A stretch of 58,021 nucleotides of DNA, filler included, from Streblomastix strix (taxonomy: Eukaryota): NCBI GenBank assembly GCA_008636045.1. It is 3 parts of 3 records of this genome, joined end to end, with 100 filler letters (N's around TTAATTAATTAA, not from the genome) between each part and the next. Parts side by side here need not be neighbours in the genome. Positions count along the whole stretch, not along the records: positions 1 to 19,283 come from SNRW01000526.1; 2 more parts are not named here. One strand, given 5' to 3'. The translations under genes were made by a program, and so were the position numbers. Numbering within the stretch: position 1 is the first letter of the stretch; the number at the start of each line of letters is the position of its first letter. Under the pieces are notes generated by a model. That model was not told where the DNA came from and made no database searches. It saw only the letters and a program-made list of their open reading frames with translations. This document shows positions 1,141-52,258 of this stretch, one piece after another.

Positions 1141-1390
1141 GAATTTTTAGTTAAAGTTGTATTTCCAGAAATTCTTGAAGAATATAATAAAGTATAACGA
1201 AATGTCAAGAATTAAAAATAAAAGATCTTTTTTACTTTTAGATGAACAGAGCTCTAGAATAAATCCAAAATTGTGGACATTTGCCGCATTTATGAACATA
1301 GACGCTTTATGTTTACTTGCTCGCTAATCCACCGTTCTATGACCTAGCTATTGGGGAATAAATACCAGTTTTATGGTTTACGTTTAAAAT
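1141..1390 (+). pseudogene. Degenerate DDE_1 (pogo-family) transposase catalytic fragment
   Basis: KRSFLLLDEQSSRINPKLWTFAAFMNIDALCLLARQSTVL*PSYWGINTSF follows the LLLDGHSSH...NI..LP.H.TH.LQP.D.G.N..F pattern, with catalytic residues decayed and a TGA. Confidence 0.6.
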
Positions 1391-4300: not shown

Positions 4301-5457
4301 TGTCTCAGTTGAAAAAATTTGATTTATTTTTTGGGCTATTTTTAAATTGATTGCAAATCTTAAAATATGCAATTTAAACAATTAATATTAAAATTATTTT
4401 AAATAACATAAAGTAGAAAAACTTAAAGGAGTTATATTGAATAGAAACACCCACATCATCATTATAATATTATTATATAATTAAATGTTAGAAATTAAAA
4501 AATCTCAAATGACATGAATCGGATTAAAAAATCTTTTATTTACAATTAATTTGTTGTAGTATAAACTATTAAAAAAATAATTAAATAATTAAATAGTAAT
4601 TAATTTAAATTAATTTAATTACAAATATATTTTTTTAACTTAGTTTTTAGAAACATGCCAAATATAATTATTAAATAAATGAATCATTTTCAACTATTTC
4701 TTAAATTTAATTAAAAAATATCCATTTTGCATTAAAATTTGAATTACCCAATTAAATACTCGAATGTATCAGTCCTCCCAGGGGTAGTTTATAAAATTCA
4801 ACTTAATTCTTTTTCAAAAATCAATAGTTTAAAATAACTAATAAAAAAATTTTTTTTGATTTAAAATTAATATTAAAAAATGTAAATAAAAAGAGAATTA
4901 TGAATATTTGTGAAAAGTTAAATATAAAATATATCAATTTATTAAAAATCTTATTGAAAAGTGAAAATTTTATAAATGAATGTATATGAAATAGAAAATA
5001 ATATTTTTTAATTAAATTTATAAAAAAAATTTAAATTCAAAATAAAAATATAACAATAAATAAAGTTATATATCAATTTTAGTTATTTATTAAAATACAA
5101 CAAATCTATGGATAATCTATAAAAGATCAATTTTATATTAAATATTTTATTAATTTCAAGAGATAGAGTATACAATTTTTTGAACCTATGATTTTCCGTA
5201 TGAATTTACCCTCATTCTACCACGCCAAATCACTATAACCATTAACGCATAAATTAGTCACAATCACTAGTCAAATGATATAGTCAATTTTACTTAAATA
5301 TCCGTAACGGAGAGCACTAATTTTATCCTGATAATTGGAATCATAATCCCCACAGCCAATGCATATTATTATTTTTTATGAATAGTGTATAAAAATAATA
5401 GGTAAAAATTAATATTATTATCTATTATGATTATTATTTTTTTTTGTTTCCTAATAA

Positions 5458-8400
5458 ACGTCTAAGTTAACAAAACCACAAGTTTTTTAATTAATGGCTA
5501 TTGTTAGACCAATCAATGAATCAGTGAATTATGGTCCGTTATATAATGAATTAGTTACTAAATTAAAGGATTTATATTACACAGGAAGTAGAACAAACTT
5601 TGATAATGTGCGACAATTTCTTGAGTAATAATTAGGATAACTATATAACTAACTTATGTAAGAAAATGATGTCAATTAATCAGATTTCATAAGTAAGTTA
5701 TTTGATAGATAACATCAACTTTTCATTAATGAATTCGACGTTAATAGAATATATAATGATAGAATTAATAAAGCAAAATAGAGATTAAGTGTATATGATA
5801 ATATAGATTAATTCAAAGTTAAACAGTTTGATGTTGATAGGATATATAAAGATAAAATCAATAAAATTAAACGTAGCCTCAATCAATAATTGATGGAAAA
5901 TGAGGATGATATTTCTAACGCAATTTCAACAATTGAGAATTTAAAAAGGGTAAATAAATTATCATAAATTGCATAACAATTATTTGATGTTGAAACTGAA
6001 GAGGAAGCAATTAAAGCAATAAAGAGGGTAAGTAAATTCAAAAATAATGAAGCAATTGCTGAAGTTGTTTATGATGAAATTAATTATAAACTTCATTACT
6101 TTAATAAACTAACTCAATAAGAGCAACTGTCTTAATATGCAGATAAAGTATATGATTCGTACAAAGGACTTCCGTTTAAAGTTCAAATTGATTTTGGAGT
6201 TCAATTATAAGAAAAACTTGATGGAAATAATTATAAATATTCATGTAGAATACCTTCACTAGATAATGCTTTCAAACATAAATAATCAACTATAAGTGAC
6301 AAGAAGTCACTAGAATAATTCAAAGTAGATATGTTCAAATAGTTGAGAGAAATGATGGAATGAACATATGAAGACACTAGAAATCTGATAGTTGGAATAT
6401 TTAGCGTAATGTTTGCTACTTATAAATTAATAGATACTAGAGCAAGAATGCCATATCTTGATAAGCATGTAAAATAACACTCAGTTCATTATATAGATTC
6501 AGATTATAAAATATGTTTCTTTATTGCAATATCCTATAGAATAAGAGGTGAAATTGACAAAAAGGTTGATCATCATTCAGTAATAACTTTTGCTAAACAA
6601 TTATTCGCATACTTTTATAAAATTAAAGGAAAATATTACCTGTTTGAGTACTTATATAATAATGCAGCTAAGAAAGACTAGTCTCTTAACAAATATCTAT
6701 AGGATTACTAAGGATTCAATATCTCGACTGAAATGACTAAATTTACAGATACATTCAATCTTGTTGTTAACATATACACTTATCATGAAGGGTTAGAAGG
6801 GAAAACAGGTTAATATAGACTATTTAATTCATATGGTGAACTTAATAATGAATCAATGACTTTAGACTTATTACTCATTAGTGATGGGACTGAGCAGCAC
6901 GCAATGTATCTATCTAATGTTGAAAAGCTAACAGGTGTTCTTATATGTCCTTACTGCCATGATTATGTTACAATATTATCAAACACTAACAAAAGAGCTA
7001 ATGAGTATTTCAGTACTCATGTGGAAAAATGTAAATAATCAACTCATGAGCCATCAATCTTATTACATGACGTTCCAATGCCTATATGTCCCGCGCTATT
7101 AAATCACCCTACAGTAGAGTATTTAATGGCTTATGGAATAATGAATTAATTTAAAGCATAGCGAGGATTCATAACAAATGACTTTGAGACATTAAGCGAT
7201 TAAGTTATGAAAAATATTACAGATTAAACAACATTACTCTCATAATTATCTAAATTATCAATTGCTTCAACAGAAGTGTTTCCCAATTAAGACAAATCAT
7301 ATGAATTAAATAAGAGATGTTATACATTATTCGATGAATAAGCTAATGATTATTAAGATTAATTAGAGAATTATGGACTGCCATCCAATTCATCATTAGT
7401 TCATTTATGGCTCGCATAAACTTTCGAATCAGCAGAATAGATATATTAATGTATGAAGTATGATGATGAAAATATTCCTTTTGACAAATGTGTTAAAGTA
7501 CTGGGATGGAATAGTTCAAGATTTGATATTGCTCTGTTATGGGATGCATTAGATTGTGAACTTTGGACAATGGGTGTACCTATTGGTGATCTCAATAATA
7601 CTAAATCAATTACAGTAACAAACAAGAAGTCACACATGAAGTTACAATTTATTGATGCTGAGAATTTATTTGGACCAATGACATTAAAAGCTTGCGTTAA
7701 AGATTAAGGAGATAAAACTGAACATAAAGATGTATTTCCTTATGAAATTATTAACTCAAAGAATTGGAACGAAGTATTAATGAAAACAGAACCATTTGAA
7801 TATGAAGATTTCAAGTCATAGCTTAAGGGAGGTTGTTCTATCATTAAAGATGAATATGATTAATATTTGATAGATTTTAAAAGGTTCACCAACAGATTAG
7901 AATATCTCAAATACTATAACATTAACTATACGGAAATTATGGTTAAGCCATTAATGAATTTGATTGATACATTTGAATAATTCAATATTGATGTTTTGCC
8001 CTATATTTCAATTGCTTCATGTGCGTATGCAACGAAACACTATTCAACATACTTTCCTTCTAAATTCAATCTTGAAAGTGACAAATAAACATATTACTCT
8101 GATTTTGATATAAACGCTGACTACTCCAATCCAAATCCTAATGCGAAACCTTTTATATTAACAGCAGGGTATTGGAAGAATAAATCCTATCACTACAAGT
8201 AACAAGATTACAAAGCAGGTAGAGAAACAGAGAAAAGTGTAACAGCTGATGATTATGATTACTACAAAAAGTTGTTTGAAGCATCAGTATGTTCAATTTG
8301 TAGTGCAAAATTCACTTATTATAATCCTCCGAGTTTAGATAGATAAGACAATGAACTTCCTCATACTAAAGAAAACTGTTTGCCTGTATGTGTTTCATGT

Positions 8401-10031
8401 AATATAGCGCATGCAAATAGAGATCCAAAAATAGCATCATTACATATCAAGATGAGATAGTATGCAATTAAACACAATTTACCTATGACATTTAGTGATG
8501 AGAGAATATATAAATTACTTCGAGAATGTATTACAGGCGGTCTTGCAGCGGAATTTCATAGAGAGAATGTCGCAAGTAAGACTCATATAAATGAATTAAC
8601 TTATGATGAATAATCAAACAAAGTGATCTCATAAGATAATGAAAACGAAGTTACCCATGTATTTGCTCTTGATGGAAATAGCCTTTATCCCAGTTCATAT
8701 TCATCAGTCAAAAATGAAAATATCCCTTATACTGATCATAGAATGTATATGGCAGGCAGATCGAGATTTTATTCAGAAAAACCATATGTAATCAAAAACT
8801 GCATAGATTAGAGAAAAGAGATATTTGTAGCAAAAGTCAAAAGCTACTTTCCTAAATCAGAGTACAATAACCTTCTTCCACTTCCCCCCAATCTTTAGAA
8901 ACATTGAGATTGAAAACAAGGAAGAAGTAATTGGTGAATATATGTATTCATAAGCGCAAAACCATTCACTTCCAATGTCAAAAAAAGATAGAAAACTAAC
9001 AACATTACTCGACACTAATGGATAATATATGGTGTTTAATAACTATTATCTTTGGCTTCTTATTGATCTCGGTTTCGTGATTACTGACTACAAATCTGTT
9101 GCAGTCTTTGAGAAAAATGCGGCTTATGAGCCTTTCGTTAGAACAATGATGAATTTACGAATATAAGCTATATTAGCAGGGTCATCTAAAGAGAAATTAT
9201 ATAAACTTATAATTAACGCATCATATGGATATGATACACTAAATACAGAGAAGTTTGGAAAGATAAAGATGTTAGATAAAGCTGATACTTTCATTGCATA
9301 ACATCATCCTAATCACATTGGTATCAGAAGGATTAGTGCTAATACATTTGCAGTATAAATTAAAACTAAGACAGCGACTTGTTTTACATCAATTTAATCA
9401 GGAGTTTTTACCTTAGATAATGCGAAATATTGGTATCTCAATTATATATATAACTTCATGTATAAATGTCTAGACAGCAAACGATTTCATTTTGTTCTTG
9501 CAGATATTGATTCAATCTATATAGCAATAGCAAGAGACTCAAGTAAAGACTGTCATTAATAATTTGAATCAATAGTAACAGATAAACAGTTCTATGACTA
9601 ACATGTATACTAGTATTTACCTGATCCTAATAAAGATATCTATGACTAAAAAAAAGATACTCGGATTTGGGATTGAAAATGAAGGATATGAACTTACATC
9701 ATTAGGACCTAAGTGCTATTCAATGATTGCAAATTAATGGAACAAAGAAAAATAGCAATATGAATTTAAACCAAAAATAACATCTAAAGGAATTAGCAAC
9801 ACACAACAAATATCTCATAATGATTACGTTAATGTAATTACTAAAGATATAGTGAAGAAAGGTATTAATGGAACATTAAAAATGAACGATAATGTTATGA
9901 GCAGCATTTAAGTAGAAAAGTATGCACTAACTGGGTTCAATAATAAATCAATAGTACTTAGGAATTAATGCTGTTGTCCGTATATTAAAGGATTGACAGC
10001 AAAAGATTATTCAATCAAAGATTAATAATGA
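5458..10031 (+). pseudogene. Protein-primed family B DNA polymerase with internal endonuclease-VII-like domain (copy A)
   Basis: Motifs: ExoI NDFET, ExoII GWNSSRFD, CSIC..LDRQDN..H..NC..CVSCN, motif A DGNSLYP, motif B KLIINASYG, motif C ADIDS (DTDS mutated). Lesions: start ATG>ACG, TGA at 6361, +1 shifts at ~8886 and ~9650. Confidence 0.9.
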
Positions 10032-10062
10032 ATTATTATTATTTTTTTTATTTTAATCTAAA

Positions 10063-10473
10063 ATGGAAACCATATAGCAATATCTAACTCAAATTGATGC
10101 AAACAATAAAATGATTGAGGAATTAATGAAAAAGAAGGAGTAACTATAAGAAATTATTAATAAATAGTAATTCTCTAACGAACATCGGTTCGCTGGCATA
10201 AATGCTAATAACTATAGCCTTAATCGAAAACCAAATCATATTAGTGGTGAAATAAATAACACTTTCGGCGACATTAGAGATACCGACAACAGAGCTAGCA
10301 CTTTCATTGATATGAGAAGAATACTTAAAAATAGTATATAAAATGAATTACATTGGATTAATTGTAATAACACTAGTTATAACAGATTTCATAACGCATT
10401 AATGGAATATGATGAAATTAGATATAATTATTAGCAATAATTAGAAGATCTTCTTGATAAAATAGATGATTGA
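10063..10473 (+). CDS. Hypothetical 136-aa element protein
   Basis: Open ATG..TGA in code 6; homologue of equal length at 13000-13410(-). Confidence 0.7.
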
Positions 10474-10521
10474 AACCGTAGGTTTGAGCTCTGCTAATTA
10501 GTTTATTTTTGTATTAATGAA

Positions 10522-10665
10522 ATGACTCTCTTTGAACCACTTACTGCAAATATAACGGTCGCAATTGAAGCACTTGAATCACTCCATATTGATTGGCATG
10601 CTATTTTGAAAGCAATTTATGAGGCAGGAATCAAGTTCGCTTGTGAATCTAAATTATGCAAATGA
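10522..10665 (+). CDS. Hypothetical 47-aa element protein (MTLFEPLTAN...CESKLCK)
   Basis: Conserved with the same length at 12833-12976(-). Confidence 0.6.
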   Translation: MTLFEPLTANITVAIEALESLHIDWHAILKAIYEAGIKFACESKLCK

Positions 10666-10713
10666 ATAATTAAGTAAGATAGATATTATTTTTATTTTTT
10701 ATCTTTGAAAAAT

Positions 10714-11303
10714 ATGTCATAATAAGAAACAGAATTCATTACTCTTAAAGCTAATAGTGAATTTGAAATCTCAGCACATGAACCATGGATTATGCGGAGA
10801 AAAGTAGATGGATTTATTCCTAAATTCGGTAAAACTAATAGTTGATATTTGCGTGGAAGGCTTGGTGAATAAATGTATTCATTACACAGATTAGTTGCCG
10901 AACAATTTGTTGCAAATGATGATCCAATTAATAAGACATAAATCGATCACAAAAATGGAGTTAAAACAGATAATAGTATAGAAAGTTTACGTTGGGTGAA
11001 TAATAGTGCTAATTAGAAAAAAATAAGTCGAAACACAACGCTGATGTTTAATATGAATATGTTAATGAAGTTCCTGATGACGCTATTACTATTAATGATT
11101 AAGGAAAACATAGATTTGAATTCTATTCTTATAGTTAATAGACAGATAAATTTTATTACTATAACGGCTTAAAATATAGAATACTACACATCAATGAGAT
11201 AAAATAAAATGGATCATTATTTGTTCACGCTTATGACACTAAAAATGATTTAATAAAAATTTGTATCAATAAATTCAAAAGACTGTACAATATAATTAAT
11301 TGA
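10714..11303 (+). pseudogene. HNH endonuclease
   Basis: LHRLVAEQFV...IDHKNGVKTDNSIESLRWV..SAN; internal TGA at ~10843 and a frameshift at ~11020. Confidence 0.85.
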
Positions 11304-11373
11304 AATTATGCAAAATAATAAATGAGAAAACTAGATATAATTATTTTTTTTTACTTTTTTATCCATATTATAA

Positions 11374-11727
11374 ATGACATAGACAGAAACTCAGACTTAA
11401 TCCATTAAAATAAAATCACCTGCTGAATAGAGAAAAAGTCGTTTTATTAATAATCAACTTAAATATGACTTTGTCTTTCAACTCCCTGATGACGCTTTTC
11501 GTATTGAACATTACGATAGTAGTCGTGGGTACTATGAGTTTTAAAATTAATATTACTATAGTTAACGGACAGATAAATTTTACTCGCGTAACTATTTGAT
11601 ATTACCTACTAGTGTATAAAAGAAAACTGAGGCATAAATTGTTTATTTGACTGATACAAATGATCATAGAGTAGCTGTAAATATCAATAAATTCAAAAGA
11701 TAACACAATTTCATGAAATTGAACTGA
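11374..11727 (+). CDS. Stand-alone homologue of the HNH protein C-terminal domain (117 aa)
   Basis: LPDDA..YYSQRTDKFY..INKFKR aligns with VPDDA..YSQQTDKFY..INKFKR of the upstream HNH gene, but there is no HNH motif. Confidence 0.7.
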
Positions 11728-11755
11728 TTATTTTTGCTTACTTCCTATAAATTAA

Positions 11756-12727
11756 ATGGCATCAAGACAGATACAATAACTTTATCAATAGAAAAATTTA
11801 GATTCATATACGCTAGCTTATTAAAATTTATATGATTTTGATAACACGAATAATGTTATATTAACAAAGGAATAGATGAAGAAATTATTAGATAAAGATT
11901 CTGATAACATGCTAATTGAAAATGGATATTATTATACTACTTACTTAACAAATGATGATTATAATAGATTATTGGGTAAGTATAAGAGTTGGACTGAGGA
12001 TGAAAATCCAGATATGTATAAATTTATCATCCCATAGGAGTAAACTGATTAATAAATTGCTTAAGCAAGATTTCGAACAACTGTAAAGCATTAGCCATAA
12101 TCAATATCTTAATCAATTTTACCATAAATTCAAGTCTATTAGCCAATCAGAATTAATTAACAGTAATTGAATACTCTAACTATTTAATAGTTGAAACCAA
12201 ATGCTAAAAAACCAACCTAATCAATTAATTCTGTTAATGAACTTAATAAATTAAAGTGGGAGGTAATGGATACAGTTAGTGAATAGGAGTAATTCAATTT
12301 AGATAATGATATAGATCCAAACACAAAAATAAATGCAATGCTTTAAAAAGAAAACATTAATACAAAGCAATCATTTTATATCAGTTTTCTGAATCATAAA
12401 TTCAATTAAAAGCAGTTCAAAGTATTGGACTAAATAGCACAAACTATTAACTTTGTTGACTAATCTCTTAGCTAATGGTATGACTAATACATCTTGTAAT
12501 ATTCCGAGAAACATCCATAGAAAATTTATTCTTAACATAAGCCAAAGAAATCAAAAAAGTTAGCGAAAGATGAATTATACCAAGAGATAACATAAAAGCA
12601 ATTTCCCTTCAAATCAAAGTATGATGTTATCAGTAAAGCTAATTACTATGATATCCCAACACACTAAACTAAGAACTAATTTGATATTTATCCTTAGACT
12701 AATACTCTTGAACCACATGACTATTAA
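11756..12727 (+). CDS. Q-rich hypothetical protein truncated at the A/B junction
   Basis: More than 320 open codons in code 6 (MASRQIQQLYQ...EPHDYQ) running into inverted segment B. Confidence 0.55.
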
Positions 12728-12781
12728 CTCAAAATCATTATTAGCTTTAAGAGTAACGTATTCTGTTTCTGTCTATGTCAT
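12728..12781 (-). pseudogene. 18-codon stub of the segment B HNH gene
   Basis: MTQTETEYVTLKANNDFE matches MSQQETEFITLKANSEFE at 10714, then similarity stops abruptly. Confidence 0.7.
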
Positions 12782-12832
12782 TTATAATCGCATAAAAAAC
12801 TAAAAAATAATAATATCTATCTTATTTTTTAT

Positions 12833-12976
12833 TCATTTGCATAATTACGATTCACAGGCGAACTTGATTCATGCCTCATAAATTGCTTTCCAAATAGCAT
12901 GCCAATCAATTAGGAGTGATTCAAGTGCTTCAATTGTAATGGATATATTTGCAGATAGTGGTTCAAAGAGAGTCAT
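12833..12976 (-). CDS. Hypothetical 47-aa protein (paralogue of 10522-10665)
   Basis: Direct homology, intact frame. Confidence 0.6.
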
Positions 12977-12999
12977 TTTGATTACGAAAAATAAACGAA

Positions 13000-13410
13000 T
13001 CATTCATCTATATTATCAAGAAGATCTTCAAATTATTTCTAATAATTATATCTAATTTCATCATATTCCATTAATGCGTTATGTTCTCTGTTATAACTAG
13101 TATTATTACAATTTATATAATGTAATTCATTTTTTATACCATCTTTAAGAATTCTTCTCATATCAATGAAAGGACTAATTTCAGCATGCAAATCAAGTTT
13201 GCCGCAAATCGGAGATTTGTTCATACCATCACTACTACGATTTGGTTTTCGATTGAAGTTAAAGTTATTAAAGAATTACTATTGATTAATAATTTCTTAT
13301 TGTTACTCTTTCTTTTTCATTAATTCGTCAATCCTTTTATTGTTTGCATCAATTTGAGTTAGATATTGCTATATGGTTTGACTTTTGTCTAGATTCTTCG
13401 AATATTCCAT
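13000..13410 (-). CDS. Hypothetical 136-aa protein (paralogue of 10063-10473)
   Basis: Direct homology; contains supplied ORF 13039-13224. Confidence 0.7.
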
Positions 13411-13437
13411 TTTAGACTAAAATAAAAAAATAATAAT

Positions 13438-16400
13438 TCATTAATCTTTAATAATATAATCATTTGCTGTTAATCCTTTAATATAAGGGCAACAACATTA
13501 GTTCCTTAACACTATTGATTTTTTATTGAACCCTGTTAGTGCATATTCTTCAACTTAAATGCTACTCATAACATTATCGTACATTTTAAATGTTCCATTA
13601 ATACATTTTTTCACTATATCTTTATTAATTACATTGACGTAATCACTATGAGATATCTACTATGATTTACTAATACCTTTTGATGTTATTTTTGGTTTAA
13701 ATTCATATTGCTATCTCCCTTTACTCCTTTTGAGTACAATCGTTGAATAGCACTTAGGTCCTAATGATGTAAGTTCATATCCTTCATTTTTAATCCCAAA
13801 TCCAAGTATCTTTTTATAGTCATAGATATCTTTATTAGGATCAGGTAAATACTAATATATATGTTAGTCATAGAACTGTTTATCTGTTACTATTAATTCA
13901 AATTATTAATGGCAGTCTTTATCAGGATTTCCTTCTATAGCTATATAAATTGAATCAGTATCTGCAAGAACAAAACGAAATCGTTTACGGTCTAGATATT
14001 TGTACATAAAATTATATATATAATTGAGATTCCAAAATTTTGCATTATCTAGTATAAGGACTCCTGATTAAATTGATGTAAAACAAATTGCTGTTTTAGG
14101 CTTAATTTATACTGCGAATGTATTAGCCCTAATACGTCTGGTACCAATGTGATTAGGATGATGTTATGCGATGAAAGTATCAGCTTTATCTAACATCTTT
14201 ATTTTACCAAATTTCTCTGTGTTTAGAGTGTCATAGCCATATGATGCGTTATTTATTAGTTTATAGAATTTCTCTTTAGATGATTCTGCTAGTATAGCTT
14301 ATATTCGTAAATTCATCATTGTTCTAATGAAAGGCTCATATGCCGCATTTTTCTCAAATACTGCAACAGATTTGTAGTCAGTTATGATGAAGACAAGATC
14401 AATAAGAAGCCAAAGATAGTAGTTATTAAACACCATAAATTATCCATTAGTGTCGAGTAATGTTGTTAATTTTCTATCATTTTTTGACATCAGAAGTGAG
14501 TGTTTTTGCACTTGTGAATACATATATTCCCATATCACTTCTTCCTTATTTTCTATCTCATTATTTCTAAAGATTGGTGGAAGTGGAAGGAGGTTATTGT
14601 ATTCTGATTTAGGAAAGTAGCCTTTGACTTTCGCTACAAACATATCCTTTCGCTAGTCAATACAATATTTTATTACATATGGTTTTTCTGAATAAAATCT
14701 CGATCTGCCTGCCATATACATTCTATGATCAGTTTAAGGGATATTTTCATTTTTGACTGACGAATATGAACTGAGATATAGACTATTATCGTCAAGAGCA
14801 AATACACGAGTAACTACGTTTTCATTATCTTATGAGATCACTTTGTTTGACTAATCATCATAAGTAATTTCATTTATATGAGTCTTACCTGCAATATTCT
14901 CTCTATGAAATACCGCTGCAAGACCACCTGTAATACAATATCGAAGTAATTTATATATTTTCTCATAACTTATTGTCATAGGTAAATTGTGTTTAATTGC
15001 ATACTATCTCATCTTGATACGTAATGATGCTATTTTTGGATCTCTATTTGCATGCGCTGTATTGCATGAAACACATGCAGGCAAATAGTTATCTTTAGTA
15101 TGAGGAAGTTCATTGTCTTATCATTCTAAACTCGGAGGGTTATCGTAAGTAAATTTAGCACTACAAATGGAACATATTGATGTTTCAAATAACCTCTTAT
15201 AATAATCATAATCATCAGCTGTTACATTTTTCTCTGTTTCTCTACCTGCTTTATAATCTTGTTATTTATAGTGATAACATTTATTCTTCCAATACCATGC
15301 TGTTAATGCAAAAGGTTTCGCATTAGGATTTGGACTAGTGTAGTCAGCATTTATATCGAAATCTTCATAATATGCTTGTTTATCAATTTCAAGATTGAAT
15401 TTAGAAGGGAAATATGTTGAATAGTGCTTCGTTGCATACACACATGAAGTAATTGAAATATAGTGCAAAACATCAATATTGAATTATTCAAATGTATCAA
15501 TCAAATTCATTAATGGCTTAACCATAATCTCTGTATCATTAATATTATAATACTTGAGGTATTCTAATCTGTTGGTGAATCTCCTGAAATCATTCAAATA
15601 TTAATCATACTCATCTTTAGTGATAGAATAACCACCTTTGAGTTATGATTTGAAATCTTCATATTCAAATGGCTCAATTTTCATTTGTACTTCGTTCCAG
15701 TTCTTTGAATTAATAATTTCATAACGAAATACATCTTTATGCTCAGTTTTATCTCCATAATCTTTTACGCAAGCTTTTAATGTCATAGGACCAAATAAGT
15801 TCTCTGCATCAATAAATTGTAATTTTATGTGTGACTTCTTGTGTGTTACTGTAATTGATTTAGTATTATTGAGATCACCATTAGGAATACCCATTGTCCA
15901 AAATTCACAATCTAATGCATCCCGTAACAGAGCGATATCAAATCTTGAACTATTCCATCCCAGTACTTTAACACATCTGTCAAAAAAGATATTTTCATAA
16001 CTCTTTGAGTCAGAATGCAAAGCATTATCACTATACTTCATACACTAATATATCTATTCTGCTGATTCGAATGTTTATGCAAGCCGTAGATGAACAAATG
16101 ATGAATTGGATGGCAATCCATAATTTTCTAATTATTCTTAATAATTCTCAGATAATTCATCGAATAATGTATAACATCTCTTAACTAATTCATATGATTT
16201 ATCTTAGTTTGGATATACTTCCGTTGATGCAATTGATAATTTAGATAATTATGAGAGTAATGTTGTTTAATTTGTTATATTTTTCATAACCTAATCACTT
16301 AATGTTTCAAAGTAATATGTTATAAATCCTCGCTATGCTTTAAATTAATCCATTAGTCCATAAGCCATTAAGTACTCTGTAGTAGGATGATTTAATATTG

Positions 16401-18037
16401 CGGGACATATAGGCATTGGAACATCATGTAATAAGATTGATGGTTCATGAGTTGATAATTTACATTTTTCTACATGAGTGTTGAAATATTCATTAGCTCT
16501 CTTGTTAGTATTAGATAATATTGTAACATAATCATGGCAGTGAGGGCAAATAAGAACACCTGTCAATTTTTCAACATTAGATACATACATTACATGCTGT
16601 TCACTTCCATCACTAATGAGTAATAAGTCAAATGTCATTGATTCATTATTAAGATATCCATATGAATTAAATAGCCTATATTAACCTGTTTTTCCCTCTA
16701 ATTTTTCATGATAAATGTATATATTTACTACAAGGTTAAATGTATCAGTAAAATGAGTCATTTCTATCGAGATATTGAATCCCTTATAATCAATTAAATA
16801 TTTGTTAAGAGACTAGTCTTTCTTAGCCTTATCATAATATAAGTACTCAAACAGTTGATATTTACCTTTAATTCTGTAGTAATATGCGAATAATTGTTTA
16901 GCAAATGAAATTACTAAATGATGATCAACTTTTTTGTCAATTTCACTTCTAATTCTATAGGATAGTGCAATAAAGAAATATATTTAATAATCTGAATCTA
17001 AATAATGAACTGAATGCTATTTAACATGTTTATCAAGATATGGCATTCTTGCTCCAGTATCTATTAACTTATAAGTAGCGAACATTACGTTAAATATACC
17101 AACTATCAGATTTGTAGTGTCTTCATATGTCCGTTCCATCAATTCCCTTAACAGTTTAAACATATCTACTTTGAATTATTCTAGTGATTTCTTGTCACTT
17201 ACTGTTGATTATTTATGTTTGAAAGCATTATCTAGTGAAGGAATTCTGCATGAACATTTATAATTATTTCCATCAAGTTTTTCTTATATTTGAACTCCAA
17301 AATCAATTTGAACTATAAATTGAAGTCCTTAGTACGAATCATATACTTTATCCGCATTTTATGACAGTTGCTCTTACTGAGTTAGTTTATTAAAGTAATG
17401 AAGTTTATAAGTAATTTCATCATAAACAGCTTCAGCAATTGCTTCACTATTTTTGATTTTAACTACTCTTTTTATTACTTTAATTGCCTCCTCTTCAGTT
17501 TCAACATCACATAATTGTAATGCTATTTATGATAATTTATTTACCCTTTTTTAAATTTTCAATTGTTGAAATTGCATTTGAGATATCATCCTCATTTTCC
17601 ATCAATTATTTGTTAAGATTACGTTTATATTTAATGATTTTGTCTTTATGTATCCTATCAACATCAAACTGTTTAACTTTGAATTAATCGATAATAACAT
17701 ATACTCTTAATCTCTATTTTGCTTTATTAATTCTATCAGTATATATCCTATCATCATCGAATTCATTAATGAAAAGTTAATGTTAGCTATCTTACAACTT
17801 ATCTATGAAATCTGATTAATTGACATCATTTTCTTACATAAGTTATTGAAATGGTTATCTTAATTATTGCTCAAGAAATTGTTTCGCATTATCGAAGTTT
17901 GTTCTACTTCCTGTATAATTTAAATCCTTTAATTTAGTTACTAATTCAGTATATATTGAACCATATTTCTCTGATTCATTGATTGGTCTAACAATAGCCA
18001 TTAATTAAAAAATTTGTGGTTTTGTTAACTTAGACAT
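13438..18037 (-). pseudogene. Protein-primed family B DNA polymerase with endonuclease-VII-like domain (copy B)
   Basis: GWNSSRFD, KLINNASYG and ADTDS present; motif A decayed (DDNSLYL). +1 shift at ~17550 and TGA at 15121-15123. Four supplied ORFs share this frame. Confidence 0.9.
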
Positions 18038-18362
18038 TTATTAGGAAATAAAAAATAAATAATAAATATAGATAATATTACACATGTGATTTTTTGCATC
18101 GGACTATAAAAAAATAATAATATGCATTAGTTGTGGAGATTATGATTCCAATTATCAGAACAAAATTAGTGCTCTTCGTTGCGGATATTTAATTAAAATC
18201 GTCTATGACATTTGACTAGTGATTATGATTGATTTTAGCGTTGATGCTTATAGTCATTTGGCGTGGACGAATGAGGGCAAATTCATACGGAAAATCATGG
18301 CCTCCAAATTTTTTATACTCTATCTCTGACATTTCATTAAAATATAAATAAATCCAAAAGAT

Positions 18363-18647
18363 TCACTCTCTTTCATTTAAATATTATATGAATTTCATTA
18401 CTACTGATTAAGTGTTCTCTGAAGCTATTTATACAACTTCTTTTAACTATTCCATCTAAAGATGATTATTGTATTATTATAATGTAAATCTAAATTCTAT
18501 CTAAGGATCACTCATCGTCGCTCGTGATATAAGTTAGCTCAAAAATATTGAGTTAGTCATAAATTCCTTACAATTTATTTTTAACAACTTAGTTGTTAGA
18601 GAATCTTCGATTCCCCAATCTTTGATTGGAATCTTTGATTATGCCAT
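18363..18647 (-). CDS. Hypothetical 94-aa protein whose 5' end is built from tandem DNA hairpins
   Basis: MAQSKIPIKDWGIEDSLTTKLL...YLNERE*, open in code 6. Confidence 0.5.
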
Positions 18648-18806
18648 ATTTTTAATCTAGAAAAAAATTTCTTTTCAATAAAGTAATTATTAACAAAATG
18701 TTAGAGATGATAATCAGAATGTCTAAACGGATTGGATTACATTTATTAGGTTATTATTATTTTGTTTTCATTTGTTTATTACTAAAATTTTAATTAAATA
18801 TAATTA

Positions 18807-19283
18807 AAATATCAAAATGTAAAAAAAGATAAATCAATTGAAACCGTAGGTTTGAGCTCCGCTAATTCAAAATGTCCCAAAGGACGACCTAAGAATAAAC
18901 CAACTGCAACTAATGTAAAAGAATATATGAGTTTAAAGAAACTTTTTACACATTTTGGATAAACTGTTAATCCCTAAAATATAGCAAAAGTTCCATAAAT
19001 TTTATTGAATTTGGGAAAACTTCAGTTAGCTTAAGGTAGAATAAAATAATCAGATTATTCAGCTTTATTAAGGTTGATGCACCAAATTGATAATAGTGTT
19101 TCAGCTTATGAAGCTGATGCTGGAATATAAGGATTAAAAGGTAACATTAGAAAAGAAAGAATATATGGATCTTATGACCTAATGAGATTAGTGAATGGTG
19201 CTTTTTAAACATAATAAATTGTGTAATAGGTTTTGGAACCATAATAGATGTAATCATAATAAGAAGCAAATTACAATATTAAT
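18807..19283 (+). CDS. Partial hypothetical protein (start unclear, cut by contig end)
   Basis: Open frame ...KDKSIETVGLSSANSKCPKGRPKNKP...QEANYNIN. Confidence 0.4.
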
Positions 19284-19383: not shown

Positions 19384-19669
19384 GATCAACTTATTTAGTG
19401 ATATCATCTGTAGGTATAAATTAAATAGCTACAAGTCGATGAAGACCCATAGTCTTTCCATTTATACTGACTTGCTTATATCCACTTTTCTCTGTATATA
19501 TTTTGTTAATGGCTTTATCGGCTTTTCATCTAATTGTCCATGGTTCTTATGTAGATATTTCATGAGTAGGGAAATCTGAGAGAGTTACAAATTGCTACAT
19601 TTATTAGTCCAATTTTTCATGAGTAGAGATATCTTATTACATTTATTAGTCTGGTACAAATTCTTACAT
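19384..19669 (-). pseudogene. HNH endonuclease 5' part (TGA and frameshift, cut by contig end)
   Basis: HEISTQEPWTIR*..., then GYKQVSINGKTMGLHRLVAIQFIPTDDITKQVD. Confidence 0.7.
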
Positions 19670-19721
19670 TTTATAGCCAGATAAAAAATTAGAAAAAAAA
19701 GAGAGGTGCGAAAAACCTTTT

Positions 19722-19886
19722 TTATTTTTGTCGAGGTGACTCCCTAAATTAACGATACCTAAAAAATAACACATTATTTTTGTCGAGGTGACTCCCTAAA
19801 TTAACGACACCTAAAAAATAACACATTATTTTTGTCGAGGTGACTCCCTAAATTAACGACACCTAAAAAATAACACATTATTTTTG
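19722..19886. repeat. Tandem repeat, 3 x 52 bp
   Basis: Unit TTATTTTTGTCGAGGTGACTCCCTAAATTAACGAYACCTAAAAAATAACACA; GTCGAGG at 19730, 19782 and 19834. A diverged inverted copy lies at ~22755-22815. Confidence 0.95.
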
Positions 19887-19928
19887 GGTCAGGCCTAAAA
19901 AGGGTACCACCGAAATTTCGGAGATAAA

Positions 19929-20945
19929 TCAATTCTATCGTTTTAACACATCGAAATTATTAAGTGATTTATTTACAATGATAAATTCATATTTCTATAG
20001 ACTGTTATATATAATTATAAATTCCTGCTCGTTTAATGCCGAGACATTGTTTTCCTCGTATATTTATTTCAAATCTTACTCGGCTATATTAGCACCTACA
20101 GCTATCACATGGCATAACACTCTTGCTGACCTGAACAGATATTACGGTCGTTAAGCACAGAAGAAGATGGTATTTTTACTATGTCGACTGTCACTAACTA
20201 AATGGGTTATCGATCTAGCTAGTTCACTAGTATATCTTTATATATCAGTATTTGATCCGATATCATCGAATATCATTAATGTGGAAAGTAATGCTGCGCT
20301 TGCAAATATAGGAATTTTTATAAACTCCTGTTCACCATCTTGCTCTATTATTTTTAGCTTCTTTGAATACTATACACCTTTAATAATAGATGGAAGATCG
20401 AATCGCATTAGCGTACTAGGCTAACTATATTCGTTTATTATTTTGATACACTCGGATTAGAATATATCAGATAGCCTATGTCGGTATTTTTTATCTGTAT
20501 CATCTCTTTTCTATTTGTTATTATCTACAATCGTTACTTTCATACGTGTAATATAATCCGAGTCATAATTAATACCTTGTTCTTTTAATTTCCAATAAGT
20601 ATATACTTCTTTAACCTTATATTTAATCTCATCAAATTAAGGAAGAAATGATTAAGCTTCTGCGTATGTTATATTGATTAATTTTATACCTCTATTATTT
20701 AAATTAATAGCCATTGTTTCATCAGGTCCAAAGTTAGAGAAGTATAATATATATGGGTGAATGTATCGCTAGTATAATACTATTAATTTAGCCATTAATG
20801 TCGTTTTACCACTTCCCACTGAACCCACGATATAATGATTGGCATTAATAAGAAAGATAGAATGAGGAGCTAATGGTCTTATCTTATACTCTTCTAATAG
20901 CGATTGATCATCGAATGATACTTAATTAATTTATTGGAGGGTCAT
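19929..20945 (-). CDS. A32/FtsK-HerA-type DNA packaging ATPase (338 aa)
   Basis: Intact frame; Walker A GSVGSGKT, Walker B LMIFDD, then SDSRH and FFCAQ as in A32-like ATPases. Confidence 0.88.
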
Positions 20946-21000
20946 TTATCATGAGCTAAACAATGATATTAGTATATTAGGGTCATTTTATAGGAATCAA

Positions 21001-21357
21001 ATGAATGTAATTAGTGTAATATAGCTAGTATTAAATTACTTATTTTATGGGATTAATTTTATTGTATCGATTATATCAGTTAGCGTACCTATCGAATATA
21101 TTAATCTAATCAAATAATTATGGGGTTATCTCGATATAATATTGGTTCCTATTAATATACTTGTATATATAATTTAATTTTGCTATCGTAGAAAGAAGAT
21201 GAAGAGTGCTATTGATAATAATAAAAAGTCAGCTATAGAATAGTATACTGTTGATTAATTGGAAGAGCTAATCAAATAGGCTGTTGCAGATAATGATATT
21301 GGACTAGCGAAATAATATCGATACCAACTATATCTTCTGTTGTTGAATTAAAATTGA
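21001..21357 (+). CDS. Small membrane protein (118 aa, two hydrophobic segments then RRKK)
   Basis: MNVISVIQLVLNYLFYGINFIVSIISV...LDIILVPINILVYIIQFCYRRKK; intact ATG..TGA. Confidence 0.6.
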
Positions 21358-21620
21358 CCCCAAGAGAAAAAGCTCGGGCTCAAAAAACGATAAAAGTCAA
21401 CACCGATAATTATCGGGGTAAGGTAAAAAGCCCTAACTCAAAAATAAGAGGTGTAATATTCCCTTTCTATTTTTATTCGATATAAATGATCTGAGAAGTA
21501 ATTAGCAGTATATCTTTAATGATTATAGCTATTAACAATCTACTAGGATGTATATTAACTCTATAATAGATTTCACTTGATAGAATAGAGATTAGCGATG
21601 AAGTAAGAAATTCAATTTAC

Positions 21621-22650
21621 TCATGATTAATTATGTAGGGCATAAGAATCACATACCTGAACACAAAAATCATTAGGTAAACTTACTTGACACAGTGTAT
21701 TGATTCTAACAAAACCATTAACATCGATAGTGCAGTCTATTGATATAGCATTAGTCCATACTATCGGGTTACTAGAAGTCTTAGTAATAAACATAACAGC
21801 ATTAAGAGCTATAGTAAATGGAGTCCCTGTAAATTATGGTTTAGCTTCATCCTTAAATATAGTGAATAATGTATAGGCTGATGATGATGAAGTATTAGGA
21901 TTAGAGTGTGTTACTTACATTGATATATAAGCCCTTCCATTATATGTTATAACTTATCCCCAAGCAAATGATTCATACATTCCACGCGTTAATTTTTATT
22001 TAATAGCCTATTCAACTGGTGGAGTAGGTAATGGTGCTACTAGCTAATTATTGAACTTGAGTTATGTACAATCAAAATCTATAATTAGCCCCTTATAATC
22101 ATAGGCGTCATCTTCTTATTTTTATATTTTGAATTATGATGAAGTGGATCCCATTTTCCATACTCCATCGGTATCAGTTGGATCAGTGTTACAGCCCGAT
22201 AGCACAAAGCTATCCCAGTTCGCTTTATTTTTCATTAGCCTAAGTCCTTAATTACGAATGTCATCATTCGGTTCGATAATCATTTGACCCATCGCATGTG
22301 GAAATTATTTAGGTAAAAAATCACCTATGTCTGCTATATCTCCATTAGCGAGTAGAAGCAAGTTTGCTGTGCCATCTTTTATCGAAAATTAATCGAATAT
22401 TTTTTTTACCAGATATTTCTTGTTAAGTATTTATGGTAACTAACACACTGGAATCAAATTTATATTCTTTAGCTCGAAAGTATTAACTAAAATAAGTTAG
22501 CAATTTAAGAATAAGTTTCCTGATATGATGGGTTAATTTATCTTGTAATTATTCAAATTCTTTTTACTTAATTTCATCTTACATTACTTTATTTATCTCA
22601 TCTTTCATTGCTTACATTTATTCTTCGGTTGGTAATTCTAAATCATCCAT
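21621..22650 (-). CDS. Fibre/spike-like protein (one homopolymer frameshift at ~22400-22407)
   Basis: VTINTQQEISGKKIF..IKDGTANLLLLANG resembles phage tail-fibre motifs; the C-terminus looks beta-rich. Confidence 0.5.
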
Positions 22651-22881
22651 TTATATTGATGGCAAAAAATAATAACCGTAGATTAACAGATATAGATCAA
22701 TTAATATGTCAGAGCCTAAAATAAATCAATTAGTGTACTCTGTAGAAACTGACCGACCCCAAATTAATGTGTTATTTTTTAGGTATCATTAATTTTAGGG
22801 GTCAACTCGACAAATCTATTTTTAAAAGAGAGGTGCAACTTGCCTTTTTATTATTTTTTCACAATAAGTCAATTTTTTTCC

Positions 22882-23670
22882 TCAAAACTCGTTAGGGTCA
22901 ATATCAATTGCTGGTACATCAGATAGCCGAACTAGATCTTTATTAATCCTATATAATTTCTCTACACTATTCCAGAGTACATTATCCTGTGTATTAATAG
23001 ACACATTTTTTATCAGAACATCTATAACTCTAACTATCTCCTTCTTCTTATATTATTTACTTAAGCAAGAGTGTGTTGCAATAATTGATTCCTCTAACAC
23101 TATTTCTATATCATCTTCTTTTTCTTAGGTAACTATCGACCAGAATTTAATGAAATTATCAGAGGATAATATAAAGTCATCACTCCTATTTCTATGAGTA
23201 ACTGTTCTCCAAATACAATCAACAACGAACTTCATTATCTTTAAATTTGGATGAGATAAATAAGCGTTCAAATGATTATCTGTGACATTAGTCGGAATAG
23301 TTTATGGTATGATAATTGGTTAAGGTAATATCTCAATTGATGGTTATGATAATTTATCCAATACTTCTTGGGGTGTAATTTGAGCACTAGTTCTATCGGC
23401 ATCAGTGTACTTATTTTTGTTGAATTATCTGGGTTAATTTCTAGGTGATATAATTGGTTCCGCTTACTACGTTTCATCTTATCCAGTCGATTAGATACTT
23501 CTTGATGTAATAGTTTAATTAGCCAAAGACTGTTGTTAATTCTCTAAAACTTTAGCAATTAAGTTATCCACATACTATAATCTCTGTTGGCTAGCGGTAT
23601 CAGTTAGGTCCTTCATTTATTTCTTACTTTTAGACAATCTCAATTAATTACGTTCTACTCCACGTATCAT
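22882..23670 (-). CDS. Hypothetical viral protein (262 aa)
   Basis: Continuous code-6 ORF MIRGVERNQL...IDIDPNEF*. Confidence 0.65.
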
Positions 23671-23702
23671 TTTAATTAAAACAGAAATTTCTAGATTATT
23701 AA

Positions 23703-24266
23703 ATGGATAAGTCGTAAGCGTTAAAATTTATGATGGAAAATGATACTAATATTGAGTACTTTGATGGTGGATATTTTATTCGAGATAAGAAACAAATCAA
23801 GTGTTTTGAAAATGGAAAACGAGGACTTAAATTAGTGACACAAGCTTAACAAAATAAGCTAATGATGTAGGCTAAAGGAAATAATTAGCACAAGAAATAG
23901 CCAACTAAAATGTTTGAATCTGACTCTGATGAAAGTGATAATTCTGTTGACGCTATTGAAGAAGAGTAACCTAAGCCAGTATAAAGGGTTAAAAGAAAAG
24001 TATAAAACAAACCGTAAATCAAATACGTTAATCCGCAACTTGATTTTGAAGAGCTAATATCTTTGCGAACTGAAAATAAATATACAAAATAATAACACGC
24101 AGATATGGTTAAATAAAACGAGAAATATAAAAATAAACTGAAAGCGTTAAAATAACCTAAGCCTAAATAACAACCTAAGTAAATAGAGTAAGAAGAAGAA
24201 TAGGAGGAAGAGGAAAAAAATGATTAATGTGTTCCTTAATAATATAACTACTATGATGTATATTGA
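23703..24266 (+). CDS. Hypothetical charged/coiled-coil viral protein (187 aa)
   Basis: Continuous ORF MDKSQALKFMMEND...YDVY* with acidic and K/Q-rich tracts. Confidence 0.65.
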
Positions 24267-24506
24267 TAAAAAAGTAGCCCGCCCAAATTTGATCGGGGTA
24301 CATATTCATATCGTTATTTTTTCATGTAGGTATTGACTTCGTTAATAGTATAAAAATTAACTGATTAAAATTCATGATAAAATAGTGCGCTACGATCGTA
24401 ACGGGTATACTTATTAGAATTAACGAAAAAAAATAGCACACATATTGATTAATATAACCAGTAAAAAATGCTAACAGACAAAACTGGCTGGGTAAAAATA
24501 AACACT

Positions 24507-24944
24507 TCAAATTGATGCCAATGTATAATAATTACAGAATAGTTTGTTATCATCCTCAGTAACAAATGTGTTATATATCTATTTTTCTTCATCCTATGCC
24601 TCAGTTAATATATACTATTTCAGTTTGTTAATTTACTGAGCTTAAGCAATATTTAGCTATTTATACTAGTTATATTAATCAATATGTGTGTGATTATTTT
24701 AAGTATAAATTTTATTAAAGTATTGCTCTTACTCTGCTTACTTATTAAAAAATTACAATTTAATTTAATAGATATCGAATTATTATTTTAGCTTTTTTAG
24801 CTCTTACATTAACGGGTTCACTAATTGCGGGGGTTATAATAACTCCTTCAATTATTATATTATTTATTATATCATATCTTCCTGTATATTATTTTTGGAT
24901 AATTGTTTAATTAATTACTTCAGTTATATTATTAGTGATTCCAT
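24507..24944 (-). CDS. Hypothetical Q-rich coiled-coil protein (145 aa)
   Basis: Continuous ORF MESLIIQLKQL...YTLASI* with TAAATG start. Confidence 0.5.
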
Positions 24945-25007
24945 TTATAATAAATAAAAATAGCTAATTTTATTCGCTAATTCCCATAAAAATATTCACA
25001 CACTAAT

Positions 25008-25199
25008 TCACTATATCATATTTTTAGAATGATGTATGTAATCAATTGGCTTTGGCTATATATGTGTCGGCTTTATAATAACAGCATCACTTCTAATTTA
25101 TGTTGAGGATAGAAATTTATTAAGTAATTTTGGGACGTAACCCGTGGCTTATTATACACCACTTAATATTTTAGAGCCAAAATTCTTGGTGCTAATCAT
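25008..25199 (-). CDS. 63-aa paralogue of the amphipathic peptide gene
   Basis: MISTKNFGSKILSGV...LLNKFL shares KNFGSK.L.GV and NKFL with 25349-25552. Confidence 0.5.
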
Positions 25200-25348
25200 T
25201 TATGTGCAAAAATAATGTCATAAATTTCATGTAATAATTGATGAGATTAATTTACACACTATTTCAGAAATATAGGAAAGGCAAGTTGCACCTCTGTTTA
25301 TTTTTGGGCTGGCTCAAATTTGAGCTGGTATCAATCATTTATTATATA

Positions 25349-25552
25349 TCATCGATTTAAAAACTTATTTGCCATACCTGCTGCTCCACCAACTCCTCTC
25401 GCAATCATACCCGCAGTTGGATTAATTGCGCCTATTGTTGGTGCAACTGCTCCCATAACTTTATGAAGAACTGGCGCTACCCATTTAGCTGCAGATGTAA
25501 CACCATGCAATACTTTTGAACCGAAATTCTTTAATGAACTCCAAAATCCCAT
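25349..25552 (-). CDS. 67-aa amphipathic, putative membrane-penetration protein (adenovirus pVI-like N-terminus)
   Basis: MGFWSSLKNFGSKVLHGV..; cationic, G/A-rich, no acidic residues; ends in TGA. Confidence 0.7.
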   Translation of the reverse strand: MGFWSSLKNFGSKVLHGVTSAAKWVAPVLHKVMGAVAPTIGAINPTAGMIARGVGGAAGMANKFLNR

Positions 25553-25585
25553 TTATTGATTTAAAAATAATTTTCATAAAACGAA

Positions 25586-26158
25586 TCATTCATAATTTCC
25601 ATTCCTTAATTTGTCGACATATACTTTCAATTATTTATGTGTAATATCATAACATGAAACATATTAATAAGCGTAAGCGTCATTTTTCACATTAATGTGA
25701 AGCTTTCTAAATTTTAGCCCATTGTGGAAATATACATTATATTCTTAATCAAAACTATATCCCTCTAAGTCATACCCATTATATAATATAAGCGGTTAAC
25801 TATTTTCTGGTAGTTCGTCAAAATATTCGTATTATATTTTTCCATGATTAGTTCTGTTCTTTGAGTTCTCAATATTTGTTGTCCATCGGAGATTTTCTAT
25901 TCTATTATCATTTTTGATACGATTAATGTGATCTACTTGTGGTAAATTATTAGGATTCGGAATAAATTAAATAGCAATAACTCTATGATGTTTATATTTT
26001 TTTCCATTCAGATATATTTAATTATATCCTGTGGAATTATCAAACGTTATTTTTGGAATAAATTAATCCGCAATTCTTCTTATCGTATGTGGTTCTTCAG
26101 TTAATATTTCATAGTTATTATTAACAGTTAATATTTACCATATATTTAACTCTACCAT
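25586..26158 (-). CDS. HNH endonuclease, intact (190 aa)
   Basis: HHRVIAIQFIPNPNNLPQVDHINRIKNDNRIENLRWTTNIEN. Confidence 0.9.
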
Positions 26159-26225
26159 TTATTCCCCAGATAAAAAAATGAAGAAAATATAAAACTGATT
26201 TTTAAAAAGTTATTTCGTTTATTAA

Positions 26226-28184: not shown

Positions 28185-28331
28185 TCTTACTATTTTTCCA
28201 TCGTTAATGAAGATTGATTAATTTCCCAAAAAAGTCAACCCTGATAATTATATCGTTAATTCAAAAAATAATAAAAAGGCAAGTTGCACCTCTCTTTTAA
28301 AATTAGATTTGTCCAATTACACTAAAATTAA

Positions 28332-37974: not shown

Positions 37975-38006
37975 GAATACTAAACGTTTCCAAGGCAGCA
38001 ATAGAC

Positions 38007-47787: not shown

Positions 47788-52258
<4,471 letters not shown>

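Follow-up and report, generated by a model that had tools for sequence, protein, structure and literature searches.

We examined a stretch of 58,021 nucleotides (nt) from the Streblomastix strix assembly GCA_008636045.1 (hereafter the window), which consists of three contigs joined by N linkers (positions 1-19283, 19384-38656 and 38757-58021), and describe here a group of short double-hairpin inserts in and beside its viral genes. The guanine-plus-cytosine (GC) content of the whole window is 27%, and long open reading frames (ORFs) emerged only when TAA and TAG were read as glutamine (code 6); ORF counts were 7 in code 1 (at least 90 residues), 6 in code 4 (at least 120 residues) and 122 in code 6. 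The accessible part of an earlier report describes code 6 in the endogenous viruses of S. strix as well (PMC10120064). Segments A and B of the first contig are two broken polymerase copies, inverted relative to each other, and the genes needed to follow the inserts are these:

5494 to 10031, plus strand: polymerase copy A, Polinton-type family B, interrupted by one TGA and two frameshifts
13438 to 18127, minus strand: polymerase copy B, carrying element (iii), broken by one frameshift and one TGA
10063 to 10473, plus strand: ORF136-A, 136 residues, hosting element (i)
13000 to 13410, minus strand: ORF136-B, 136 residues, hosting elements (ii) and (v)
29151 to 33581, minus strand: Polinton polymerase of contig 2, intact and distant, used as outgroup; it reads YDDENIP, the empty state, at the site of element (iii)

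The Polinton-type label is based on motifs, database names and a relative (P0055) linked to the ORF of contig 2 that presumably encodes a capsid. Among 57 polymerase relatives, 54 were named Streblomastix strix, two were the window's own and one was a metagenome protein (37% identical); a repeat cluster look-up for the family returned no additional proteins. The viral, metagenome and prokaryote genome collections searched held neither relatives nor element copies, and phage collections gave only chance matches. The virus family, which is very high in copy number and star-like, was matched in four sequencing runs from 3 studies, termite-gut or coded, by 7715, 1861, 972 and 493 contigs; runs X1 and X4 represent a single sample that may be the source of the window, and X3 belongs to another study. 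The inserts are carried by virus genes that sit, on nuclear-type contigs, in a termite-gut protist's genome. Searches with ORF136 found no relative beyond the window, so element (ii) has no outgroup.

We then aligned segment A (5132-10766, plus strand) with segment B (18352-12729, minus strand), obtaining 4942 matches and 595 mismatches. All four clean indels of at least 20 nt were double hairpins with lengths divisible by three, as a sequence-only reading of this DNA had proposed for the larger indels, and the remaining indels were at most 8 nt. Two occurred only in B (30 nt at 16028-15999; 27 nt at 13406-13380) and two only in A (30 nt at 10175-10204; 24 nt at 10473-10496). The five hairpin strings named in that reading were all recovered at their positions, and we add a sixth element. 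With hairpins written arm-loop-arm, the elements are:

10176 to 10207, plus strand: element (i), TA, 28-nt core (CGAAC-ATCG-GTTCG, CTG, GCA-TAAA-TGC), TA
13378 to 13406, minus strand: element (ii), AA, 25-nt core (ATTC-GAA-GAAT, CTA, GAC-AAAA-GTC), AA
15997 to 16028, minus strand: element (iii), AT, 28-nt core (AATGC-TTT-GCATT, CTG, ACTC-AAA-GAGT), AT
10473 to 10496, plus strand: element (iv) copy 1, 24 nt (AAACC-GTA-GGTTT, G, AGC-TCT-GCT), with a 1-nt (A) repeat only
18841 to 18864, plus strand: element (iv) copy 2, adding eight residues (ETVGLSSA) in frame to an unrelated ORF, close to its start
13184 to 13227, minus strand: element (v), hairpins CAAATC-TCC-GATTTG, CG, GCAAA-CTTGA-TTTGC at 13188-13219
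57476 to 57504, minus strand: element (vi), new here, TA, 25-nt core (CCAAC-TCC-GTTGG, CG, GCA-TAAA-TGC), TA

The claim that these inserts preserve the reading frame held for (i), (ii), (iii) and copy 2 of (iv) and failed for copy 1 of (iv), which lies at the TGA stop of ORF 10063-10473 and is non-coding. Element (i) is a 30-nt gain in frame in ORF136-A, with the peptide NEHRFAGINA of what we call the GINA family; element (ii) (27 nt) lies in frame just past the start of ORF136-B; and element (iii), a 30-nt gain in polymerase B, reads NALHSDSKSY and is common to P0001 and P0088. Such in-frame residues bear out the proposal that the inserts add new peptide segments. Element (v) had been counted as an insertion of the same kind, but it falls in a diverged stretch of the A/B alignment with a net difference of +3, where it is nested in the loop of a GINA-type hairpin that has decayed, and is not a clean indel. 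Element (vi) reads TNSVGGINA and is known from the filled copy only. Separately, ORF136-A is wholly unlike B across positions 10259-10300, between flanks that align on both sides; a different element, now decayed, may lie there. A further group of hairpins lies upstream of the ORF holding copy 2 of (iv):

18582 to 18640, no strand assigned: chain of five short hairpins

A hairpin pair resembling this chain is found at 18691-18716, and together they are possibly stacked elements, known without an empty site.

The same elements recur at sites that are not homologous. Around copy 2 of (iv), 30 of 31 nt (18837-18867) are identical to copy 1, as previously noted, and the two loci comprise one non-coding site and one unrelated ORF. 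The peptide TNSVGGINA stands at the 7474 site in P0001, P0072 and P0088 and, with one change, in P0047; it appears again at the 8083 site in P0034 and as DNA at 57478-57502 of the window, flanked by two TA, where the chance expectation for an exact nine-residue match is 7e-8. The second hairpin of (vi) is identical to the second hairpin of (i). The nested peptide of (v), NKSPIC(G/S)KLDLHA, is also found in polymerase P0007, in both cases inside a GINA-type hairpin loop. The earlier supposition that spread is restricted to viruses is not supported: the context of (vi) is non-viral (contig 3 matches no stored viral protein), and the contig-2 Polinton has no elements. From the presence of the same element at non-homologous sites we conclude that the inserts are very probably mobile, as expected of the structure-defined mobile element first proposed, and they probably rank among the smallest DNA elements capable of moving. 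Two observations accompany these sites: a tRNA-like stretch, missed by ARAGORN and Rfam, lies at 57632-57704, about 130 nt from (vi), and P0034 at the 8083 site passes from TNSVGGINA directly to YSNP, which would fit either a true deletion running from GINA to a similar DINA or a gap in the gene prediction.

To place these inserts among filled and empty alleles, 93 of 98 stored proteins were compared with copy A (51,940 aligned residues in total); alignments below 60% identity were dropped, and two window proteins, one distant protein and two of 41 residues were left out. Relative to copy A there were 19 insertions, of which four were single residues, and 13 of the other 15 measured 9, 10, 19 or 20 residues. 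Hot spots lay at A positions ~7285, 7468, 7474 and 8083-8092, where relatives are filled and copy A is empty, as it also is near 6896-6901. Filled rows numbered 2 of 49 at 7285 and 7 of 57 at 8083; among 45 ungapped rows (5 of 50 at the (iii) site being gapped by predicted introns), (iii) was filled in 2 and TNSVG(G/V)INA in 4. Because filled rows are the minority and the outgroup polymerase of contig 2 has no insert at (iii), the inserts are gains, as argued earlier for (iii). Homologues of copy 2 of (iv) gave the same contrast (7 matches, 2 without coverage of the site): P0101 and P0103 were filled, P0100 and P0102 were empty, with a difference of eight residues, and P0099 had a similar insert at a different position. 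A 28-nt reading of (iv), drawn from flanks common to both copies, was dropped because homologues show +8 residues. At sites 6 nt apart all four filled/empty combinations were found among relatives and window copy B, so gain, loss or exchange is frequent. A tree of 80 of the 94 rows was star-like with filled rows scattered, so the number of gain events is not countable. In a predicted polymerase model of mean pLDDT (predicted local distance difference test) 52.6, the hot spots appear to fall in loops at residues 68, 129-131 and 334, with confident flanks at the (iii) site only and low confidence at two of three.

These comparisons bear directly on whether the inserts moved at all. They could instead have arisen by local fold-back mutation, or be ancestral sequence lost from most copies and shuffled by recombination among homologous viruses. 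Such an origin would fit the weak blind enrichment described below, a tree too poorly resolved to count events and the partial inheritance of inserts common to one site. It is largely refuted and very improbable, however, since the flanks are the source of neither arm, the outgroup is empty at (iii), the match at 57478 is exact over nine residues at the expectation given above, and three different elements each occupy non-homologous sites.

Sequencing runs supplied two further elements with empty sites. In run X3, a loose end at the 8083 site read, on the aligned strand, TA, GCATTTATGT, CAG, ACCC-TGA-GGGT and A before rejoining at TA, giving a 25-nt core with a TA repeat (27 nt in total) that combines a new first hairpin with the same second hairpin. 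Support was one contig per junction, and among the matches listed loose ends represented one filled allele. In run X4, a contig jumped back from position 6901 to 6896 across 27 intervening letters; the resulting insert of 33 nt, bounded by an AT repeat, forms the hairpins GAC-AAAAA-GTC and TAAAC-TAT-GTTTA (one contig; paired by eye). All inserts whose empty site was measured in DNA, namely (i) to (iv), X3 and X4, had lengths divisible by three (6/6; chance 0.0014), five of them in coding DNA. Both window copies now tolerate 1-nt frameshifts, so the inserts likely date from working genes.

The shared plan is a hairpin of 4-6 base pairs (bp), a linker of 1-3 nt (often CTG) and a hairpin of 3-5 bp, with a core of 23-32 nt, insert lengths of 24, 27, 30 or 33 nt and 8-11 residues added in frame at coding sites. 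The flank repeat is TA in (i), (vi) and X3, AT in (iii) and X4, AA in (ii) and a single A at both loci of (iv), ranging over 1-3 nt; a 2-nt A/T repeat is present in six of eight DNA-level elements. None of these eight share ends or terminal inverted repeats, and their ends are unpaired beyond the flank repeat. Hairpins are modular, the first varying while the second stays constant, and (i) differs from (vi) by a paired G-C to C-G change and three single-base length changes that sum to one codon. The flank repeat, the nesting, the hairpin swapping and element (vi) were missing from the earlier account. That account had also pointed to C-GNA-G triloops, which form very stable hairpins in single-stranded DNA. 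Only some loops are of this type, and a general C-GNA-G loop is not supported; the shared feature is the C-G closing pair (5'-C, G-3'), found in 9 of 11 distinct window hairpins. The background rate of such closure was 34% for hairpins with at least two G-C pairs (P = 0.0017) and 17.5% for those with at least one (P = 6e-6), and the former is the fair figure because the elements were picked for G-C pairs. CTRR-like words were only internal, at the linkers of (i) to (iii), and a Helitron reading of them was dropped for this reason.

Enrichment over shuffled background had been predicted and was weak and threshold-dependent in the window. Taken singly, each of (i) to (v) exceeded its own base shuffles as a double hairpin, the strict test giving P = 0.020, 0.012, 0.006, 0.003 and 0.0003 (3000 shuffles each) and a lenient criterion 0.12, 0.04, 0.17, 0.06 and 0.15. 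Blind scans of contig 1 found 7 against 1.35 expected (maximum of 6 in 20 shuffles) when two G-C pairs per stem were required, a threshold chosen after the fact, and 42 against 41.5, no excess, when one was required; a window-wide scan with the flank-repeat rule found 5 against 2.05 expected, and 3 of 40 shuffles reached 5. Back-translation of protein-only inserts fitted the template in 8 of 10 cases, as did 28-44% of random segments. The case for the elements rests on polymorphism and recurrence, not on blind enrichment.

Triloops, which favour DNA over RNA folding, make up 6 of the 11 window hairpin loops. DNA parameters gave the double hairpin on both strands for six of six elements, whereas RNA parameters lost or rearranged (ii) and (iv). 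This tells against insertion of an RNA copy by a reverse transcriptase acting in trans, as do the absence of a poly(A) tail and of truncated copies and repeats of merely 1-3 nt. The window does contain a reverse transcriptase ORF (36337-37017), and GINA-family inserts in coding DNA share one orientation and frame, a bias that peptide tolerance would also produce. An RNA route has been proposed for GC42 and the Allomyces elements, going by the accessible parts of PMC4478555 and PMC2800124; for the present inserts we consider it decidedly improbable.

A functional explanation fares worse. The conserved structure, together with the position of copy 1 of (iv) at a gene end, might suggest cis-signals, a role the sequence-only reading had considered, or spliced mini-introns. 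The inserts are rare, polymorphic and inside coding loops, GT-AG ends are absent from them, Rfam has no match in the window, and lengths strictly divisible by three suggest translation and not removal; we therefore regard either function as scarcely credible.

We next compared the inserts with known systems. Rickettsia palindromic elements are in-frame palindromic inserts that add peptide to bacterial proteins, but they are sequence-defined and ~100-150 bp long; the likeness is in-frame insertion into protein genes, and the inserts here are 24-33 nt with unrelated sequences. Stowaway-type Tc1/mariner miniature inverted-repeat transposable elements have a TA target duplication and terminal inverted repeats; a TA repeat occurs here in three of eight DNA-level elements, without the inverted repeats. 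Helitrons, repetitive extragenic palindromic (REP) elements and IS200-IS605 elements end in conserved words (TC...CTRR; GTAG tag) and are not flanked by a duplication. The likeness to REP, REPIN and IS200-IS605 derivatives lies in hairpins of 20-40 bp, a size given for REP hairpins in the accessible part of PMC3733652; here there are no end words (no GTAG/CGTC tag), no mover was found, and no HUH enzyme was present among 22 window ORFs scanned.

The closest parallels are mitochondrial. As described in the accessible part of PMC10085805, mitochondrial double-hairpin elements (DHEs) of Allomyces, other chytrids and Schizosaccharomyces have two adjacent hairpins, are non-coding and patchy in presence, and have an unknown mover; the adjacent hairpin pair and patchiness at homologous sites are both found here. 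They differ in GC content (a scan window above 75% in PMC10085805, against 32-52% here), in location (mitochondrial, against nuclear or viral DNA of an oxymonad that uses code 6 and has no long ORFs in code 4), in the Allomyces elements being without flanking duplication in the part of PMC2800124 available (1-3-nt repeat here), and in the fission-yeast DHEs being intergenic or in rRNA (in frame within protein genes here). Yeast mitochondrial GC clusters (GC42 and kin) are short palindromic inserts whose flank repeats measure 2-3 nt (AG, ACT), whose units merge and shuffle and whose mechanism is unsettled, according to the accessible part of PMC4478555; a short direct repeat (TA, AT, AA or A) and merger or shuffling (nesting in (v), first-hairpin swaps) are likewise seen here, in inserts that are shorter, not GC-rich, flanked by A/T repeats, of lengths divisible by three and non-mitochondrial. 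Sponge and placozoan mitochondrial hairpin repeats (RHE, SIR) include diverse hairpins, some in protein genes, but are organellar, and the available parts of PMC7813641 and PMC2800124 describe no fixed two-hairpin plan or flank rule. Our elements work like DHEs and GC clusters and lack their GC and location features, and also the absence of duplication in DHEs. No earlier description of these elements from Streblomastix, Polintons or protist nuclei emerged from a literature search whose coverage left out most subscription papers; PMC12721341, available in part, served as background only.

Two nuclease features of the first contig are relevant to how the elements might spread:

8272 to 8448, plus strand: HNH/endonuclease VII-like domain within the polymerase, reading DR at the catalytic motif position
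10873 to 11325, plus strand: free-standing HNH_3 endonuclease ORF, DH motif retained, frame drifting past the domain

The catalytic motif of such domains is DH. The polymerase-internal domain matches phrog_1035 (E 6.8e-9) and has weak fold matches to HNH nucleases (E 0.03-0.05), and a fold search with it found nothing at E 0.001 or better; no solved-structure relative of the polymerase was found by sequence. The motif is DR in the window copies and in most of 30 relatives listed, DH in none of these, and DRIDN in the contig-2 polymerase. The free-standing HNH_3 ORF is a candidate nick source.

The explanation we favour, at a probability of about 0.45, is that the double-hairpin elements spread without an enzyme of their own, through polymerase template switching. 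A DNA polymerase would leave its template where 1-3 A/T nucleotides match a single-stranded donor copy, continue through both hairpins of that donor and return to the acceptor. The newly made strand would collapse immediately into hairpins on its C-G-closed loops, detach from the donor and anneal to the acceptor again through the same 1-3 nt, which would yield a family-specific flank repeat. A strand-displacing viral polymerase together with HNH nicks would be the likely setting, and the very high copy number of the star-like family would make donors and heteroduplexes plentiful. Spread on displaced single strands, which the sequence-only reading suggested, is conjectural. Purifying selection in the then-active viral genes would keep only inserts divisible by three at tolerant loops, and through this selection the donor pool itself would come to consist of such lengths. 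The lack of shared ends and the family-specific repeats of different length favour template switching over one transposase, which would need shared ends or terminal inverted repeats. Template switching is also favoured by the C-G closure and the triloops of the window hairpins, the swapping of first hairpins, the nesting of (v), the four filled/empty combinations at sites 6 nt apart and the modelled loop positions of the hot spots. Several results weigh on the other side. The fixed 2-nt repeat in most elements equally fits a staggered-cut enzyme; one copy (57478) lies in non-viral DNA; the contig-2 Polinton, its polymerase intact, has 0 elements in the strict scan and 1 against 2.0 expected under the flank rule; and the polymerase nuclease domain, with DR in place of DH, may not cut. 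The divisibility by three is also partly ascertainment, as predicted proteins reveal in-frame inserts only, and the back-translation support for protein-only inserts is weak.

The first of these results would be explained by a transposase or nuclease, encoded elsewhere in the genome, that reads structure and mobilizes the non-autonomous elements in trans (a DDE enzyme with a 2-nt stagger, or an HUH/Y1 enzyme of the kind serving IS200/IS605 and REP repeats). A 2-nt A/T repeat in six of eight DNA-level elements, TA three times, and a copy outside the virus are in its favour, and shape-based recognition is known for TnpA from the accessible part of PMC2924686. We nevertheless judge it unlikely, though worth serious attention, given that terminal inverted repeats and shared end words are missing, the repeat varies by family and is 1 nt in (iv), and no such enzyme was found among the 22 window ORFs scanned.

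The nuclease domain raises another alternative, structure-driven homing. Pairing of a filled with an empty strand would create a four-way junction; an endonuclease VII-like or HNH enzyme would then nick the empty strand, copying would start from that nick, and now and then priming at an ectopic position would establish an element at a new site. This would account for two hairpins instead of one (two flanks plus two hairpins) and for the endonuclease VII-like domain in the polymerase, and T4 endonuclease VII nicks branched DNA in the available part of PMC10956419. Filled alleles are rare, however (2/45, 4/45, 7/57 and 2/49 rows), unlike homing; the motif is DR instead of DH; and the contig-2 Polinton has the domain by motif, yet no elements. 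Domains of this type have moreover been described before in polinton polymerases, where they are interpreted as derived from inteins (PMC11071308); a literature search under the words endonuclease VII and polinton polymerases found nothing. We consider homing improbable, and template switching remains the explanation we prefer.

Several neighbouring features are recorded here as observations. A 46-residue ORF without a Pfam match follows ORF136 (10522-10659) and is present in A, in B and fused to three predicted relatives. The contig-2 polymerase contains an in-frame tandem duplication of ~54 nt (30537-30643), which is not a hairpin insert, and just upstream of this polymerase lies a 122-bp inverted repeat, 97% identical (33637-33758 / 33958-34079). 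In the same Polinton, a 52-bp unit is repeated three times in tandem and also occurs elsewhere in inverted orientation (19722-19886, 22761-22859, 28263-28336). Positions 36337-38654 hold the reverse transcriptase, which is broken (Pfam RVT_1; ORF 36337-37017), followed by further ORFs that resemble those of a DIRS-type element. Lastly, an 885-residue ORF in code 6 (49601-52255) has a Gln-rich N-terminus and a C-terminal half with NTP-transferase and hexapeptide domains, presumably resembling bacterial GlmU.

Small mitochondrial hairpin elements have been argued to be mobile for decades, with the mechanism unsettled in the accessible parts of PMC4478555, PMC10085805 and PMC2800124. The same plan is now found in viral DNA of the nucleus, where a single genome contains dozens to thousands of homologous copies, and filled and empty sites, flank rules and co-conversion therefore become directly countable. 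In the polymerase family, new protein loops arise 8-11 residues at a time, as in 13 of the 15 multi-residue insertions. Tentatively, and with more doubt than confidence, the inserts may constitute a mobile class defined by shape only: ~25 nt, two C-G-closed mini-hairpins, no ends and no transposase, spreading by template switching during Polinton replication, with lengths evolved to multiples of three and providing new 8-11-residue loops for viral and host proteins. Such a class, if real, would be supplying these loops inside the nucleus of a eukaryote that lacks mitochondria.

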